Of a stretch of 50,534 bases of DNA, positions 548-40,330 are shown in pieces. The notes under the pieces were generated by a model. The model worked only from the letters and a program-made list of their open reading frames with translations. It was not told the origin of the DNA and did no database searches. Every line of letters begins with the position of its first letter. Position 1 is the first letter of the stretch. The stretch is from Candidatus Heimdallarchaeota archaeon (GTDB lineage: Archaea > Asgardarchaeota > Heimdallarchaeia > Heimdallarchaeales > Heimdallarchaeaceae): the NCBI GenBank assembly GCA_016840095.1, contig JAEOSZ010000009.1, forward strand, positions 1 through 50,534, given 5' to 3'. The position numbers and the translations under genes were made by a program.

Positions 548-1621
548 TTATTCTGATCTAATTCCTTGAATATATTCACTAAACCAAATATGTGCAGTGT
601 ATCTATCTGTTGTTACAGGAGGTGCTTTAAATCCATAAGCGCAAATTGAGCTTATAGGACCACTTCCTGCTCTATTAATTGCTACTTTTGTTGCTCTAAT
701 AACATCAACAAGAGTTCCAGCAGCATTAGGACCATCTAAAGTTTCCAATCGAATATCTATTTTTATAGGCATTTCCATGAAACCTTCACCACGAATCCAG
801 AAATGCCCCACACGTCTGTTTCCAAGGAACTCGAGATAATCTGAAGTACCACTTGCTAGATTTATATCACTCCCAAAAGATTCTTTTATGGTTCTTTCTT
901 TGACATCTCGTTTGTACTGCTTTCTATCATCATCTAGAGTATTGAGTGTTTCTAGACCTCCGGCAACATCTAATTGGTAAGTGTCTTTTATCATAACTCC
1001 TTGTTCTCTTAAAACATCTAGAAATCCTTTGTGCAGAACTGTTCCTCCAGATAAGGACTGTAGATCATCACCAAGTAAACAAACATTTGCTTTCTTGAAT
1101 TTCCTTCCCCATACAGGATTATTTGCTATACTTGTAGGTGTGCAATTTATGAATGCTACTTCAGCATCTAATGCTGCTTGAGCATAAGCTTCTACTGCTT
1201 CTTCTGCACCAGAGGGCAGAGCACAGATGAATATTTCAGCTTCAGATTCCTTTAAAACATCAACTACGTTGACTTCAGAACCCTCAGCTACAGTGATAAC
1301 TTCTTGTAAATGAACAGAAAGTCCATCTTTTACTGGACCTTTTAGCACATTGACTTCAGTTTTTTCAACACTCACGAACTGGGGAGTACTATTAATTGGT
1401 GCAAAAATAGCTTCAGCTAAATCTTTTCCAACTTTTTCTGAATCTACATCAAATGCTGCTACAAGTTTAATGTTCTTTGCTTCATAACTACTTATTTTAG
1501 GATAAAGTAATTTATCCTTCTTTTCTTCGTATATATTGTGATAAATAATACCTTGAAGTAAACCTGAGGCTATGTTTCCTATTCCTGCTATTGCGACTTT
1601 AATTACATCGTTTTTCATCAT
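548..1621 (-). CDS. myo-inositol-1-phosphate synthase paralog (divergent)
   Basis: VAIAGIGNIAS, VAAFDVD..KVGKDL, GDD, DGPNAAG and FKAPP are colinear with the upstream Ino1. Start moved to ATG 1621, which follows an SD-like AGGGTGA and avoids overlap with the upstream gene. Confidence 0.85.
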   Translation of the reverse strand: MMKNDVIKVAIAGIGNIASGLLQGIIYHNIYEEKKDKLLYPKISSYEAKNIKLVAAFDVDSEKVGKDLAEAIFAPINSTPQFVSVEKTEVNVLKGPVKDGLSVHLQEVITVAEGSEVNVVDVLKESEAEIFICALPSGAEEAVEAYAQAALDAEVAFINCTPTSIANNPVWGRKFKKANVCLLGDDLQSLSGGTVLHKGFLDVLREQGVMIKDTYQLDVAGGLETLNTLDDDRKQYKRDVKERTIKESFGSDINLASGTSDYLEFLGNRRVGHFWIRGEGFMEMPIKIDIRLETLDGPNAAGTLVDVIRATKVAINRAGSGPISSICAYGFKAPPVTTDRYTAHIWFSEYIQGIRSE

Positions 1622-1628
1622 AATCACC

Positions 1629-2711
1629 CTAATTCGATGTTTCTCCTCTAATGAATTTTTCAACTAGTTCTAAAGCTATAGAATCTCTAATCTGCTCAGG
1701 AGGATGTTTGAAGAAATAGCTTGATACTCCTATAAGAGGACCCCCAATATTTCTATCCTTTGCGATTTTTAGTGATCTAATAACATCAATCATCACACCA
1801 GCACTATTTGGGGAGTCTTGCACACTTAATTTTAATTGAGCAGTTATCGGTTGTTCTCCGAAATTTCTACCTTTTAACCACAGATAACAGATTTTTTCAT
1901 CATCTAAGAATGGAACGTAATCAGAAGGCCCGATTCTTGTAGGAACTTCATATGGAAGCATGCTTGTAACAGCTTCTGTTTTAGAGATTCTCTTCGTAGT
2001 TAATCTATGTTCTTTCTTCATGTTTTCGAAATCTGTATTTCCACCGATATTTAATTGAAAAGTTTCATCTAATTTTATACCTCTATCATGAGCTAGTGAA
2101 ACTAGAACTCGATGAAGAATGGTTGCACCTAATTGAGATTTGATATCATCTCCTGCAACAGGGACATTTTTATCTGTAAACTTCTGTGCCCATTCAGGGT
2201 TTGAAGCTATAAAAGCTGGAATACCATTTGCAAAACCAACGTTAGAATCTAATGCTGCTTGAGCATATACTCTTGTTGCTTCTTCACTTCCTACAGGAAG
2301 AAAATTCACCAACACATCAGCTTCTGTATCTTTTAAAACATCTGCAACATTCACTGGTTGTACTGTTGAAGAATCATAGCAGTGGAATGACTCCATCATA
2401 TGAGGAGCTACACCATCATTAATAGGACCTGGTAACACAGTTACTCCTTTGTTAGGAACATCAGAGAATTTATTACATACATTGGGACTTTCCCAAATTG
2501 CTTCAGAAATGTCCTTCCCTATTTTCTTTGTATTTACTTCAAAAGCAGCTACTATTTCAACATCTGAAATATGATAATCACCGAACTTAACATGCATTAC
2601 TCCAGGAACAAAATCTTTCTCATCTGCATTCTTATAGTATTCAAGACCTTGTACTAAAGCTGATGCACAGTTTCCAAGACCAGCAATTGCAACTTTAACT
2701 TTTTTCGACAT
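1629..2711 (-). CDS. ino1: myo-inositol-1-phosphate synthase
   Basis: GLGNCASALVQG, GDDIKSQLGATILHR, QLNIGGNTDF, SKTEAV, GPSDYVPFL, DSPNSAG and FKHPP are canonical motifs of the archaeal/actinobacterial type. Confidence 0.95.
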   Translation of the reverse strand: MSKKVKVAIAGLGNCASALVQGLEYYKNADEKDFVPGVMHVKFGDYHISDVEIVAAFEVNTKKIGKDISEAIWESPNVCNKFSDVPNKGVTVLPGPINDGVAPHMMESFHCYDSSTVQPVNVADVLKDTEADVLVNFLPVGSEEATRVYAQAALDSNVGFANGIPAFIASNPEWAQKFTDKNVPVAGDDIKSQLGATILHRVLVSLAHDRGIKLDETFQLNIGGNTDFENMKKEHRLTTKRISKTEAVTSMLPYEVPTRIGPSDYVPFLDDEKICYLWLKGRNFGEQPITAQLKLSVQDSPNSAGVMIDVIRSLKIAKDRNIGGPLIGVSSYFFKHPPEQIRDSIALELVEKFIRGETSN

Positions 2712-3767: not shown

Positions 3768-5576
3768 TTGATGCCAGATTTCGTTATTGATACAAATTTC
3801 TATATTAGTGGGTTTCAGACATTACCCAATACTTTCTCAAAATTTGCTAAAGCTTTCAAAGCTATCAATTTTCAAATCCACATGCCTTTTTACATTAAGA
3901 ATGAGATGAGATTCTTCCTTCAGAGAGAAATTATCCCTCATGTTAAAACTTCTGAAGTGAATCAAAACGAATTCAATAAATTTCTACAGAAAATACATAA
4001 ACACACTTCAAACCTTCCACAGAAACCAGATCTATCAGTTATTTTTCTCGCTGACAAATTAAGTGCTACAATTGTGTCAAGTGACTTAAAACTACTTGAA
4101 ACAGCAGAATTAATTGGAATATCTACTCTCACAAATAGTGCTTTTATGAGTTTTGTACTTGAAGAAAATAAAGATCCTTCTTTAACTTCATTTCTGAAGG
4201 AACTGGAAAATAAATTAATAACAGCTGAAATCAGATATTCAATTGAAAGTACAAATAGATATGATCCTGTAAAAAGAATCAGGAAGATCATAGATTCAGC
4301 TATTTCTGTAATTCGAACTGAATACGAAGAGAAGATTTCTCAATTAGCTCAAAGCGATTTAACTGAAGCTGATGGATTCTCTATTGAATCTCTACAATTG
4401 AAGGAACTTCTAACTGAAGCACAAAGCGATTTACAAGGACTAGAAGTGGATTTTAAGACAGGTCATTATATGGAACTTGAAAGCGAACTATTGGCAAGAA
4501 TTAGTGAAATAACAGATCATTTAGTAGACTGGAAACTTGCAGTTGATGATATTGAAGATCACATAATCTATAATGAAGCAAATCTACTTCTAGGAAGACT
4601 ACATTATCTTGCTTGTATTGCATTAATTGAAAACAAAAAAGTAGAACTCTCTAGAGTTTATATGGACAAATTACTTATGATTTTGTTACAGAACTCTGAA
4701 GCCAATGAACAATATGGAATAGATACTCATTTCTTAAGAATGATTATTTTATTATTGTCTGGTCAGTTTCACAGATTGAATTCTTATTTTACACCTGCTT
4801 TTGAAGATGAGTGTAATCAATATCAAAGAGCTGACGTTGTAAACGTCTTGAAAGCTTTAATCCTTCTAACAGTTATTCTAGGAAGTGAAAAGGCAGTTGA
4901 ATCAGCAAAAGATTATGATTATGATAACATTGAATTCATAAATCAGTTAGGTTTCAAGTTCATGCAATTAGAGGATTTAGACAAAGCAGCTATGATGTTC
5001 GAACAAACTTTCTATCTCTCCTTGAATTCAAAGAATAGAGGTTTATGCATTGCTAGTCTAGAATATTTAGGTTGGCTCTATTTTTCAGGATTTCAACCAG
5101 CAAAAACCACTATTCAGCAGCTTTATCAATCAATGATTAAAAAATTCCCAGAGATAAAATCAAGTTATCAAGTTAGTTTAGATGTTTCTACCAAACCAAA
5201 AGAATTAGAGAAATTCGTCTCTTCTTCTTATCAAGCCTTATCATCACTAGCTGTTGATCTAAAGTCACCCTTATACTGTGTAGGAATATCTTACATAAAA
5301 GAGAAAAACAAAATCAAACCTCTGATCAGAGTAATGAACTGGGGAATGATGGCTAGAATAGGAATCATAGATGAAAACCAAGAATTGATCCAGAACTCTT
5401 CTCTCGGTAATACTATTCATCTTATCGATGGAAAATTCAAAATTGTACCAGCATCTTCACATTTTAGAAAACAACATGATGTTGAGTTAATTTTGCATAT
5501 AGATCATGTTTCTCAACCGACAATCCTTTGTAGATCACCTGGTGGCTGGGAATTAACAACAATAGCTGATAAGTAA
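3768..5576 (+). CDS. PIN-domain protein with long helical-repeat (TPR-like) region
   Basis: N-terminal FVIDTNF...NEM...PDLSV...IVSSD gives the four acidic PIN residues. About 350 aa of amphipathic helices follow (NQLGFKFMQLEDLDKAAMMFEQ is TPR-like), then a beta-rich C-terminus. Confidence 0.7.
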   Translation: MMPDFVIDTNFYISGFQTLPNTFSKFAKAFKAINFQIHMPFYIKNEMRFFLQREIIPHVKTSEVNQNEFNKFLQKIHKHTSNLPQKPDLSVIFLADKLSATIVSSDLKLLETAELIGISTLTNSAFMSFVLEENKDPSLTSFLKELENKLITAEIRYSIESTNRYDPVKRIRKIIDSAISVIRTEYEEKISQLAQSDLTEADGFSIESLQLKELLTEAQSDLQGLEVDFKTGHYMELESELLARISEITDHLVDWKLAVDDIEDHIIYNEANLLLGRLHYLACIALIENKKVELSRVYMDKLLMILLQNSEANEQYGIDTHFLRMIILLLSGQFHRLNSYFTPAFEDECNQYQRADVVNVLKALILLTVILGSEKAVESAKDYDYDNIEFINQLGFKFMQLEDLDKAAMMFEQTFYLSLNSKNRGLCIASLEYLGWLYFSGFQPAKTTIQQLYQSMIKKFPEIKSSYQVSLDVSTKPKELEKFVSSSYQALSSLAVDLKSPLYCVGISYIKEKNKIKPLIRVMNWGMMARIGIIDENQELIQNSSLGNTIHLIDGKFKIVPASSHFRKQHDVELILHIDHVSQPTILCRSPGGWELTTIADK

Positions 5577-37085: not shown

Positions 37086-38429
37086 ATGACATACACACCA
37101 ACACATCTAGCTGTTCAAGGTCTCATTGTTTGGTTGTTATTATCCAAGAACAATAAAGCATATTATAAAGAACATAGATGGGAATTTATAATTATCAATC
37201 TTGTAGCAATTTTCCCAGATATTGATTTACTTTTTGGATATCATAGAACTTATACGCATAGTCTGATTATTCCAACTTTTACTCTGCTAAGTATGTTAGT
37301 CATCGATATGATCCATAAAAATGCAAGTCCAATAGAAGATGCAACACAAAAAACAGTTAGATTTGTTAAACTTGCTTCATTAATGTGGTTAATACACATC
37401 TTTCTAGATCTTAGTTGGGGACCATTACTATTATTCTGGCCAATTGACAATAATCTATATGATCTTTCTGTTTTTCTTAGATTTAGGAATGAAGCATGGT
37501 TATTCTTTCCTTTAACTTTTGTAGGTTTAATTCCTGATTGGTCTATATACTCTATGACGGAAGGACAGAGGATATTTTTCATAAATCTGACTCAAGAAGA
37601 ACTACAATCGATCTATGGAGAATTTCTCGATCTTTACATTGCACAATTTACTTTCCATGTTCTCTTGTTTGTAGTTTGGGCAGTAGTAATTTTGTTCCCT
37701 GCATTCAAAAGAAAAAAACGAAAATCTGAGGAAGAGCGGAAGAAATATGCTAAAAGCTTTCAGACGTTTTGGACCTTACTAAAAAGGCAATTAACGCTTT
37801 TTGGAATCTTCATGATTTTCCTAGGATTAATGCTAGGACCTATAATTGGGTTGAATCGAGCGATGAATTATGAGGTTTCATATGAATATAGAAGCACTCA
37901 ATCTTACTTTGATCCAACACTAGGAATTGCTTTTGTAAACAAACCTCAAGCAACAACTACAATTGATTTTCATAGTGAAATAGGTGTAGTAGATTATAAT
38001 GCAACTATGCTATTAACAAATAATGATACATTCATCAATTTCTTTGAAAATTTTGATAATGTAACGAGTAACTACTATGATGATAATATAACATTCGAAC
38101 AAATGCTTTCTTCGTATGCAACACTGACTGATCAAGCTGAAAACGAAAGTATCTATGAATCCAGACTTATCGGAGGTAATGTTGAGAATGGTACTCAAAT
38201 AACTATGAATACAACAGAAGTAGAAGAAACAGTTTACTTAATCACTTTCGTAAAAGACTGGAATACTTCAGAGTCTTTCATTTACGAAGCTACTATAGGA
38301 GTTAACTATATTATTCATAGAAAAACAGCTGTCATAGAAGGTAGTATTTTGAGTGGAATTGGTTTAGTACTAATAGTTGTAGATCAAATTATAGCTATTC
38401 GACAAAAGAGAAGAATATCAAGAAATTAG
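37086..38429 (+). CDS. Membrane metal-dependent hydrolase (YdjM-like) fused to a sequon-rich ectodomain
   Basis: H...FPDID...HRTYTHSL...HIFLD motifs, several TM segments and a C-terminal TM anchor. Confidence 0.75.
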   Translation: MTYTPTHLAVQGLIVWLLLSKNNKAYYKEHRWEFIIINLVAIFPDIDLLFGYHRTYTHSLIIPTFTLLSMLVIDMIHKNASPIEDATQKTVRFVKLASLMWLIHIFLDLSWGPLLLFWPIDNNLYDLSVFLRFRNEAWLFFPLTFVGLIPDWSIYSMTEGQRIFFINLTQEELQSIYGEFLDLYIAQFTFHVLLFVVWAVVILFPAFKRKKRKSEEERKKYAKSFQTFWTLLKRQLTLFGIFMIFLGLMLGPIIGLNRAMNYEVSYEYRSTQSYFDPTLGIAFVNKPQATTTIDFHSEIGVVDYNATMLLTNNDTFINFFENFDNVTSNYYDDNITFEQMLSSYATLTDQAENESIYESRLIGGNVENGTQITMNTTEVEETVYLITFVKDWNTSESFIYEATIGVNYIIHRKTAVIEGSILSGIGLVLIVVDQIIAIRQKRRISRN

Positions 38430-39374
38430 TTTAGTTGTTAGTTCAACTAAATCTGAGTTCTGATTCAGCTCAACCATCTTTACATTTCGTAAGGAAGCAA
38501 CTTCATCAACAAAAGACACACGTCTGTATGTTCTAGCATAAACAATCCTTAAATCAGGAATTCGCTGCATAGTAGGAAGTGGATTTCTTCCAACTGTTCT
38601 CTCAAGATCACTAATTATATAGATTATTTTTTCTCTAGAAGAGCTGTCTTTGAGCTGTTTGGTTGCTAATTGTAAAACTTCATCAAGATCAGTTTTTCCT
38701 CCACTTTCAATATTCAGAATCAATTCAACTAATTCTTCAGGAGGAATTCTCTTAGACATAGGTTTTAGCAGATGAGCTTCAGAATCAAATTCAATAACTG
38801 CAAAGTTATCTCGTTTAACTGATAGAGATAAAACAGATGCCATCAGAACAATTTGATGTATTAACTGTAGAACGCTTAAGCTTTTATCAATACAAATTAC
38901 AATGCTTTTTTTTCTTTTTGATGGCTCTTTAACTACAATACTATCATAATCAGGGACTAACTTACCCATACTTAGCATCTTCTCAAAGGTCATTTCTATT
39001 TCCCAGGTATCTCCAGGTTCATAATTGACATATCTGGAAACAGTAGATGAAATCCCTCTTCTGAAAATATCTTTTGCTTTTTCAGTGATGAATGGTATAA
39101 GTTTCTCAAGGAATTTTTTACGAAGATCATAGTTGATGTGCTTCTTTGTTCTGGAATAAAGTTGAATTAAATCCTCACTAGCAAGACTATCTAGCATTTG
39201 ATCTGTTGGTTGTATCTTATCTAGTAATTTAGCTGCTATCATAGGATAGTTTGTTGCTATTAACTTGAGTCCCTCCAAATTACTTTCCTCAGCTGCTTTT
39301 TCAGCTAATTCAATAATACGATCTATATTATCATCTCTTTTACCGAGTTCAAGATAAATCTCATTTATTGTCAT
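38418..39374 (-). CDS. VWA-domain protein (MoxR partner, CoxE-like)
   Basis: MIDAS motif DKSLS...GGKTD...ISD. The frame stays open upstream to 39464. Confidence 0.88.
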   Translation of the reverse strand: MTINEIYLELGKRDDNIDRIIELAEKAAEESNLEGLKLIATNYPMIAAKLLDKIQPTDQMLDSLASEDLIQLYSRTKKHINYDLRKKFLEKLIPFITEKAKDIFRRGISSTVSRYVNYEPGDTWEIEMTFEKMLSMGKLVPDYDSIVVKEPSKRKKSIVICIDKSLSVLQLIHQIVLMASVLSLSVKRDNFAVIEFDSEAHLLKPMSKRIPPEELVELILNIESGGKTDLDEVLQLATKQLKDSSSREKIIYIISDLERTVGRNPLPTMQRIPDLRIVYARTYRRVSFVDEVASLRNVKMVELNQNSDLVELTTKLIS

Positions 39375-39405
39375 TCTGCCTGCATTTGATGGGAAAGTAT
39401 GAAAC

Positions 39406-39455
39406 GGTTCATCCCCTACAACAGATAGTGTAGGATCACCTAATCTTCTTTTTTT
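39406..39455 (-). other. Candidate -1 frameshift cassette (slippery A7 plus 3' stem-loop)
   Basis: Minus strand reads CGA_AAA_AAA_GAA_GAT_TAG, then GGTGATCCTACA-CTATCTGT-TGTAGGGGATGAACC. The -1 frame runs without a stop into the VWA ORF. Confidence 0.6.
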
Positions 39456-40330
39456 CGTAGAATCCTACTATCATCATATCTTGATAAGACTTTGGAGATA
39501 ATTTCTTCAATAATCCTTTCTTCAGTTTTCCTACTAGAGGTTTTACATCTGATTTTTCTGGAATGAACCGAAATTGCTCTATCTAAGAGATCTATTTCAT
39601 CTATTTTTTCGTCCATTTTGTAGAGATTTACTAACTGAATTGCTCCACGAACTGTTGAACCATATTCCAGTTCAGAATGATTCAGAGTTACTTCAACAAT
39701 TTCACAGGATATTCGGATAAGGAATTCATCTGTACTTTGAGTACGGAGCTTAACAATCTCAATCATCTCATCTAAAGATTGGTGTGTAACATTTATCCAA
39801 ATGCATCTATCATAGAATGCTTTTGGTAAGGGATTAGTTGCTACTGTATCTTGAGGGTTATATGTAAAAACAGGGATGAATCCTTGTTGTGCTTGTATTT
39901 CTCCAAGTTGTGGAATCGTAATTAGTTTCTCATCTAATGCAGTTAATACAGCATTGATAGTTTCTGATGGAGCACGATTAACCTCATTGTAGAAAAAGAG
40001 ACCTCCTTCCTCCATTGCTTCAGTTAATGGACCAGCAATGAAAGTATCTCTTGAAAATCCTTTTTCCAAAACAAGAGGGGGATCATACCAACCTTTCAAT
40101 TTAATTGATGTTAAACTATCATCTCCATCAACTCTTATGAAAGGTCTCTCTAAGCTGACTGCTAATGCTTTAGCCATTTCAGTTTTTCCAGTTCCAACAG
40201 GACCCTCAATAATTATAGGTAAGTCTTTTTCAATAGCTCTAACAATCAACTCAAGTTCTTTTCTTCGTCCAACTATTAATTTTGACATCTTTTCAAGAAC
40301 TTCTTTTGAAACTTGATTTCCTTTAGACAT
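39440..40330 (-). CDS. MoxR-family AAA+ ATPase
   Basis: IVGR, GPVGTGKT, GPLTEAM, Walker B variant YNEVNRA and LPKAFYDR. Confidence 0.92.
   Translation of the reverse strand: MSKGNQVSKEVLEKMSKLIVGRRKELELIVRAIEKDLPIIIEGPVGTGKTEMAKALAVSLERPFIRVDGDDSLTSIKLKGWYDPPLVLEKGFSRDTFIAGPLTEAMEEGGLFFYNEVNRAPSETINAVLTALDEKLITIPQLGEIQAQQGFIPVFTYNPQDTVATNPLPKAFYDRCIWINVTHQSLDEMIEIVKLRTQSTDEFLIRISCEIVEVTLNHSELEYGSTVRGAIQLVNLYKMDEKIDEIDLLDRAISVHSRKIRCKTSSRKTEERIIEEIISKVLSRYDDSRILRKKED

Follow-up and report, generated by a model that had tools for sequence, protein, structure and literature searches.

A probable programmed -1 ribosomal frameshift yielding a MoxR-type ATPase and a predicted ATPase-VWA fusion from one Heimdallarchaeal gene

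The 50,534-nucleotide (nt) stretch of DNA analyzed here (contig JAEOSZ010000009.1, positions 1 to 50,534, of the Candidatus Heimdallarchaeota archaeon assembly GCA_016840095.1; hereafter the window) carries, on its minus strand, an open reading frame (ORF) for an AAA+ ATPase of the MoxR type, followed by an ORF for a protein with a von Willebrand factor domain of type A (VWA). An earlier interpretation, made from the letters alone and referred to here as the sequence-only reading, had proposed that a programmed -1 frameshift fuses the two. By direct reading of the sequence and translation of the ORFs, moxR (taken as the 0 frame) was seen to end in CTA CGA AAA AAA GAA GAT TAG, which places a slippery heptamer, A_AAA_AAA, in the X_XXY_YYZ phase required for tandem -1 slippage. 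The -1 frame has a TAG at 39467-39465 and is open from 39464, through an ATG at 39374, down to 38418; upstream of this ATG it translates as KKRRLGDPTLSVVGDEPFHTFPSNAGRM, while the ORF counted from the ATG itself, which holds the VWA domain, comprises 318 amino acids (aa). A slip at the heptamer is predicted to give a product of 637 aa, made up of residues 1-294 of the moxR translation (P0001) and residues 6-348 of the -1 frame translation (P0002). Re-reading confirmed the moxR end, the heptamer, the -1-frame TAG and the linker peptide as the sequence-only reading had given them, and its predicted product sizes (296 aa and about 637 aa) were also correct. Runs of A7 were 3-fold rarer in the window than expected (21 seen versus 65 expected). 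The features of the locus are collected in Table 1.

Table 1. Features of the moxR-VWA locus and predicted junction peptides (positions in the window)
Feature	Position	Strand	Basis
moxR ORF, short product, AAA_5-type MoxR ATPase, 296 aa	39440-40330	-	ORF and Pfam
Slippery heptamer A_AAA_AAA, phase CG[A AAA AAA]	39455-39449	-	Sequence read; invariance in orthologues
0-frame stop TAG, two codons past the heptamer, ending the short product	39442-39440	-	Sequence read
Spacer from heptamer to base of hairpin, 8 nt	39441-39448	-	Constant in 24/24 distinct Heimdall junctions
Hairpin with kink-turn-like internal loop, candidate stimulator	39406-39440	-	Folding, covariation, pattern match
Linker in the -1 frame, RRLGDPTLSVVGDEPFHTFPSNAGR, annotated as intergenic	39375-39449	-	Open frame in all orthologues
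Helical domain and VWA/MIDAS domain, -1 frame, C-terminal part of the predicted 637-aa product	38418-39374	-	Pfam, AlphaFold2
Predicted junction peptide of the fusion, KKRRLGDPTLSVVGDEPFHTFPSNAGR			
Predicted junction peptide after Arg, (R)RLGDPTLSVVGDEPFHTFPSNAGR			

The best Pfam match of the short product was AAA_5 (8e-20), and its nearest NCBIfam model was GvpN, at 74.6 bits and thus under the cut-off of 266.8 bits. Both the Walker A and Walker B motifs were intact, and the GPVGTGKT and FFYNEVNRAP blocks were conserved. When a profile of the ATPase (alignment A3) was compared with the PDB, the AAA modules of midasin/Rea1 came out on top (E 2e-55, 191 bits over three modules), NorQ scored 52 bits, CbbQ was matched and CobS was matched weakly. 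The midasin match was rejected as a sign of special ancestry, since its score is largely the sum of three AAA modules, each contributing about 60 bits, little above NorQ. The VWA half matched Pfam VWA_2 (2.6e-11), and its metal ion-dependent adhesion site (MIDAS) motif, DxSxS...T...D, was invariant (D193, S195, S197, T258, and D286). An AlphaFold2 model of this half, built from a 20-sequence alignment, had a predicted local distance difference test score of 83.8, with residues 1-24 disordered. The first helix of the model begins at N27, four residues ahead of Met31, which corresponds to the ATG codon of the window, and the best structural matches were NorD (9qhe_G, E 2e-8) and the MIDAS domain of MDN1/Rea1. 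Sequence comparison indicates that purifying selection acts on both halves over a range of 38-88% identity.

With the VWA part as query, a search of 60 related genomes gave orthologues in 27 genomes besides that of the window, all from its family and order, and the junctions were extracted from these by script. In all 26 family orthologues, which reach down to 38% VWA identity, the VWA frame was -1 relative to moxR, the heptamer was invariant and in the same phase, a 0-frame stop stood 1-2 codons past it, and the -1 frame opened 22-31 nt upstream of the moxR stop. Every one of the 24 distinct Heimdall junction sequences carried exactly A7 in phase, never a longer run. The linker was free of stops in the -1 frame in all orthologues, and its peptide was kept as KKRxxGDxxxxIVGDEPF, with synonymous changes in the DNA. 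Upstream of the heptamer, the mean pairwise variability peaked at the wobble position of the 0 frame (0.56), and downstream it peaked at that of the -1 frame (0.44, versus 0.29 and 0.25 at the other two positions), i.e., the heptamer marks a change in codon periodicity from that of the 0 frame to that of the -1 frame. The ATG of the window was not kept; TTG was found in L016 and TTA in L017 and L021, and in L032 and L033 the first possible start codon lay 194-218 nt downstream of the position of the ATG. The sequence-only reading had named the conservation of the A-run, of the -1 phase and of the linker as a coding sequence as checks on the proposed frameshift, and all of these were borne out, while the random phase and linker stops that it had listed as outcomes speaking against a frameshift did not occur among the orthologues.

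Downstream of the heptamer, the RNA of the window folds into a two-tier hairpin with a minimum free energy of -12.5 kcal/mol. Its outer stem pairs GGU (39440-39438) with ACC (39408-39406), and its inner stem pairs UCCUACA (39435-39429) with UGUAGGG (39420-39414), leaving a loop at 39428-39421. This hairpin is in the top ~1% of 42-nt windows from the same locus. In nearly every orthologue, the 42 nt past the heptamer gave the same two-tier fold (-8 to -15 kcal/mol), which mostly ranked among the best 0-6% for windows from their own locus. Across the junction alignment (A1), 79% of the cells were paired, versus 25-53% when the partners were slid, and changes on both sides were found for 10 of 13 pairs (7/7 in the inner helix); the observed values were reached in 0 of 500 shuffles. 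As an example of compensation, CCUACA/UGUAGG in the window is replaced by CUCUAUCA/UGAUAGAG in L030. The relatively GC-rich hairpin that had been proposed to begin eight nt after the heptamer is thus present and supported by covariation, while the alternative ATGAA/TTCAT stem proposed to overlap it was not conserved among the orthologues in this alignment.

Naturally fused relatives, which the sequence-only reading had suggested looking for, do exist and are colinear through the junction. On a contig from Kariarchaeaceae (L037), a 277-aa moxR (3820-4653, minus strand) is followed by a single ORF encoding a 638-aa AAA_5-VWA protein (P0003; 1895-3811, minus strand), which has a Shine-Dalgarno (SD) sequence of its own, AGGTGAT. 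P0003 aligned with the predicted fusion over residues 19-636, with 31% identity (E 5e-117). At the former slip site it reads CCG AAA AAA CGC, one A shorter, and the hairpin is absent. The Walker A motif of P0003 is degenerate (GSGKR), and a similar degeneracy is known from the AAA+ module that ChlD has next to ChlI. Judging by these sequences, the arrangement in L037 appears to have arisen by duplication and then fusion, one A having been lost, in parallel with chlI and chlD. A homologue search with P0003 returned only 4 close relatives, a number that has no bearing on how common fusions are.

In Hodarchaeales, 19 of 19 loci were in the -1 phase, with A_AAA_AAC, A7 or A9-A13 runs at the site, and a different GC-rich hairpin followed after a spacer of 6-8 nt in 17 of these 19. 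We also noted that, in L040-L054 and L088-L107 of this order, the run varies from A6C to A13 with the -1 phase kept, and that the hairpin has the form GGCGGGA-N6-UCCCGCC and codes for R-D-x-x-P-A; it is absent in L041 and L045, where the run is A10/A11. Directly upstream of the Hodarchaeales loci lies a gene for a conserved protein of ~700 aa that has a MarR-type domain at its C terminus.

When species-representative genomes were scanned with the ATPase alignment, 80 loci were obtained, 76 of them with both halves. These came from archaea (Heimdall- and Hod-labelled metagenome-assembled genomes [MAGs], Methanomethylicia, Bathyarchaeia, and Thermoproteota) and from bacteria, including Nitrospirota, Nitrospinota, Spirochaetota, Actinomycetota and Desulfobacterota. 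The VWA half was in the -1 phase at 70/76 loci, and an in-phase X_XXY_YYZ heptamer lay within the overlap at 69 of these 70. Most of the 69 heptamers were A7 (40), followed by A6G (15), A6C (7) and A6U (3), and A_AAU_UUU, A_AAU_UUC, C_CCA_AAA and A_AAC_CCU were found once each. At two Methanomethylicia loci (L109 and L134), strong GC hairpins come after the non-A sites. Of the 76 loci, 5 were true fusions and had no A-run. In a tree of the ATPase domain (a quick FastTree run, branch support unassessed), the frameshifted state was found throughout, with fused forms at scattered tips. As judged from these loci, recoding is not peculiar to Asgard archaea and runs through the whole AAA_5-VWA family, in bacteria as well as archaea.

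Given the comparative results, we consider it likely that moxR and the VWA ORF are one gene, whose single mRNA gives both MoxR and MoxR-VWA through a programmed -1 ribosomal frameshift, and this is the reading that had been proposed from the sequence. Most ribosomes would stop at the moxR TAG and produce the AAA_5 ATPase, while a minority would slip back by one base on the heptamer, aided by the structured RNA 8 nt downstream. The slipped ribosomes would continue in the -1 frame through a flexible linker of ~25 residues, a helical domain and the MIDAS-bearing VWA domain, resulting in the long ATPase-VWA protein. As the analogy with NorQ-NorD, CbbQ-CbbO, ChlI-ChlD and midasin suggests, the long form could enter the ATPase hexamer via its identical AAA+ module, and the frameshift efficiency would then set the number of VWA domains per ring. 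At an efficiency close to the ~10% that A7 chelatase cassettes gave in E. coli, there would be approximately one VWA domain per ring. A mixed ring with a set subunit ratio would follow from the parallel with NorQD, CbbQO and ChlI/D.

Some observations weigh against this interpretation. The ATG at 39374 exists, and some independent initiation of the 318-aa VWA protein is therefore possible. As the compared genomes are related to one another, the junctions are less independent than the counts imply. Furthermore, while the hairpin follows the heptamer at a distance (8 nt) within the range of 5-9 nt used for downstream stimulators and shows covariation, its thermodynamic z-score is weak; compared to its own shuffles, its stability was unremarkable (z -1.26, 23/200). 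The case for the hairpin is for this reason built on conservation. The sequence-only reading had also pointed to the lack of an obvious SD before the VWA ATG. This is true but uninformative, as SD matches of at least 5 nt were found for only about 4/39 ORFs of the window, and SD-based arguments were dropped because of this rarity.

The fusion could also be made without any shift by the ribosome, if RNA polymerase added one A at the A7 run and a minority of A8 mRNAs encoded the long product. The shift site is a homopolymer, the A9-A13 runs of relatives have lengths typical of polymerase slippage, and the rise in efficiency with the length of the A-run in chelatase cassettes is compatible with either mechanism. 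However, the members with A_AAU_UUU/C, C_CCA_AAA and A_AAC_CCU sites have no homopolymer, and the Heimdall clade never goes beyond A7. The covarying structure lies downstream of the run, at the spacing of ribosomal frameshifting, while in hairpin-assisted polymerase slippage the hairpin is upstream of the run. We regard transcriptional slippage as unlikely, and favor a slip by the ribosome over one by the polymerase because non-A heptamers occur in the family. According to another alternative, the locus holds two ordinary genes, with the VWA protein started at ATG 39374, or made by ribosomes that reinitiate past the moxR stop; the A-run would then be a conserved Lys-Lys and the open frame incidental. 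The ATG is indeed present in the window and in its closest relatives, the absence of an SD means little where most genes have none, and in NorQD and CbbQO the MoxR and VWA proteins are separate polypeptides. Nevertheless, the start codon is not kept across the orthologues (some have TTA, or no start for up to 218 nt), and the 65 nt of the "spacer" change in the manner of a coding sequence read in the -1 frame. The -1 phase would be expected at about one third of the loci if it were free, in contrast to the 70/76 observed, and the fused relatives are colinear through the linker, with the hairpin lost in the fused gene. Two independent genes are, in our judgment, improbable.

A homopolymer sequencing error (true A8 or A6) in a single fused gene, or a recently formed pseudogene, would also explain the split. 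Homopolymers are error-prone, and the source is a MAG with 89% completeness and 7.8% contamination. However, 24 distinct junctions, which come from independent assemblies and studies, all have A7 in one and the same phase, and this excludes the A8 assembly error that the sequence-only reading had raised as an alternative. The 0-frame stop is kept right past the site, both halves are under purifying selection, and the true fusions have no A-run at all. Artefact or decay is thus very hard to credit, and the programmed ribosomal frameshift remains the reading that we favor.

The internal loop of the hairpin resembles a kink-turn. The 5' strand reads GGU-GA-(inner stem) and the 3' strand (inner stem)-(G/A)AU-GA-(A/G)CC, and this pattern was fitted by 24/24 distinct Heimdall junctions. 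In the window, the non-canonical stem is GGU/ACC, the first GA is at 39437-39436, the canonical stem is formed by 39435-39429 and 39420-39414, the 3-nt bulge is GAU (39413-39411) and the second GA is at 39410-39409. At the level of sequence, the parts of a kink-turn are all present, i.e., a canonical helix, a 3-nt bulge, tandem G.A/A.G pairs and a non-canonical helix. Positions G49, A50, A74, U75, G76 and A77 of alignment A1 were invariant. U75 is a synonymous site (GAY/AAY) and was U in 26/26 sequences, in contrast to the Asp codon at columns 49-51, where both GAC (21 sequences) and GAU (5 sequences) occur. The core of the box C motif is identical to the GAUGA strand, the match to Rfam was weak and not significant (SNORD57, of the C/D-box type, E 4.4), and the genome has genes of the L7Ae family. 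Part of this conservation could reflect coding constraint instead, as the Gly-Asp and Asp-Glu codons overlap the element; in the fused Kariarchaeaceae gene, however, the Gly-Asp side and the hairpin are lost and Glu-Pro-x-Phe is kept. The internal loop fits the kink-turn consensus, and the hairpin is therefore a possible L7Ae site. We put forward only tentatively, and with more doubt than belief, that it is a genuine kink-turn bound by L7Ae, in which case free L7Ae would set the frameshift efficiency and the share of rings that carry a VWA arm. If true, a cellular archaeal gene would have a natural -1 frameshift that depends on a protein, and this would be the first natural frameshift switch of the L7Ae type; we found no natural kink-turn frameshift stimulator among the papers surveyed on kink-turns, frameshifting and L7Ae. 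The nearest precedent for such a hairpin would be the selenocysteine insertion sequence (SECIS), where an L7Ae-type protein reportedly reads a kink-turn in an mRNA as the signal for recoding. SBP2, which binds the SECIS kink-turn, belongs to the L7Ae family. SECIS differs in that it recodes UGA and sits in the 3' untranslated region.

Two further candidates were rejected in connection with this element. The string AGGTGATCC (39433-39441, minus strand), a 9-nt match to what we take to be the complement of the 16S rRNA 3' end, starts 7 nt past the heptamer. It occurred once versus 0.27 expected, with 24/100 shuffles equal, and it was not retained as an SD-like signal. It coincides with the GGU-GA side of the kink-turn-like element and may be better explained by it, the likeness to an SD being incidental. 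The Hodarchaeales hairpin, checked by eye, did not fit a K-turn or a K-loop.

Some observations concern other loci and the surroundings of the gene. A paralogous MoxR-VWA pair in the same genome (L002; contig C3, moxR 1483-2364, minus strand) is also in the -1 phase. Its moxR ends in GA[T TTT TTC] TAG, with U_UUU_UUC in phase at the stop, and a GGAGGAG SD with a TTG start just past the stop makes ordinary initiation possible there. In L132, from a Thermoleophilia MAG (~3344), the halves are in the same frame and split by one TGA after C_CCA_AAA GCC, an arrangement that may point to a mistake in sequencing, to readthrough or to a second shift. Within the VWA ORF of the window, there is a second A-run, A8 (38906-38913, minus strand), at KRKK just before the first VWA strand, and runs of this kind are few in the A7-depleted window. 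The Heimdall loci have genes for a Pab87-type peptidase with a beta-lactamase fold and an MFS transporter upstream, and for a YdjM-like membrane protein downstream. In bacteria and Thermoproteota (L081-L087, L106, L108, and L110-L126), the gene directly upstream is of the MtmB family, URO-D (MtaA-like) or B12-binding radical-SAM type, and these neighbors hint at a connection with corrinoid-dependent methyltransferase systems.

We found no description of recoding in the AAA_5-VWA family among the papers surveyed on MoxR, frameshifting and von Willebrand domains, and the accessible part of the supplements to PMC3711429 does not name AAA_5, VWA, MoxR, chelatase or ATPase. The statement in the sequence-only reading that such recoding is undescribed for an Asgard MoxR thus agrees with our literature search, but the recoding itself is not limited to Asgard archaea. 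A 2021 review lists, for cellular frameshifting in archaea, one demonstrated case (fucA1) and one inferred case (chelatase), in addition to some viruses (PMC8211752). The locus would add a deeply conserved candidate in Asgard archaea. It would also mean that the chlD principle of deriving an ATPase and an ATPase-VWA protein from one gene is used by a second, non-chelatase AAA_5 family over many phyla, and that genome annotation splits these recoded genes wrongly. A free VWA partner protein probably never exists in these organisms, and the frameshift efficiency would constitute a natural control of ring composition in a MoxR machine.

The closest known parallel is the frameshifted chlD gene. 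The sequence-only reading had cited as precedent that chelatase genes of this type use a -1 frameshift to make a short and a long subunit, and this is published (PMC3711429, PMC5009743, PMC9227772); in E. coli, poly-A sites of chlD/"magnesium chelatase" genes gave -1 frameshifting of 10% (A7), 40% (A9) and 63% (A11) (PMC3711429). As in chlD, a C-terminal VWA domain with a MIDAS would here be reached by a -1 shift past an AAA+ module. The two systems have in common an A-rich heptamer or poly-A site at the boundary between the AAA+ module and the linker-VWA part, a short ATPase and a long ATPase-VWA protein from one gene, downstream stems, the existence of fused and split relatives, and recoding in both bacteria and archaea. 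They differ in that the ATPase here is AAA_5 (MoxR/NorQ-like) and not ChlI-type, and in the kink-turn-like loop of the stimulator. We tested the identity with a chlD chelatase and rejected it; there was no match to Mg_chelatase (PF01078) at E<=0.01, AAA_5 being the best family, and the BchD-ChlD model (TIGR02031) gave 22 bits against a cut-off of 499. CobN/ChlH (PF02514) was not found in the genome itself (89% complete) or in any of 24 genomes of the genus, and the only match within the family was in a genus without the recoded gene. Because the ATPase is AAA_5 and CobN/ChlH was not found, the sequences indicate that the AAA_5-VWA system is not a chlD chelatase.

The gene also shares features with E. 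coli dnaX, in which a poly-A heptamer (A_AAA_AAG) and a hairpin give two AAA+ clamp-loader subunits (tau and gamma) in a set ratio from one gene. In dnaX, however, the shift leads to the short product, whereas here it would lead to the long one, and nothing here corresponds to the SD-like stimulator that dnaX has upstream. Midasin/Rea1 likewise combines AAA_5 modules and a MIDAS domain in one polypeptide with a flexible tether, but has six AAA modules per chain and acts in ribosome biogenesis. In NorQ-NorD and CbbQ-CbbO, a MoxR-type AAA_5 hexamer works with one VWA partner (PMC13036017, PMC4660213). These systems resemble the present one in pairing an AAA_5 ATPase with a MIDAS-bearing VWA partner encoded next to it, but theirs are two polypeptides from two genes, while here the VWA domain apparently exists only as a C-terminal extension of the ATPase. 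By analogy, the AAA_5-VWA machine is expected to function in the manner of NorQD or CbbQO, in which a VWA arm docks onto an AAA_5 ring (PMC13036017), except that the arm would here be tethered to one protomer, as in ChlD and midasin.

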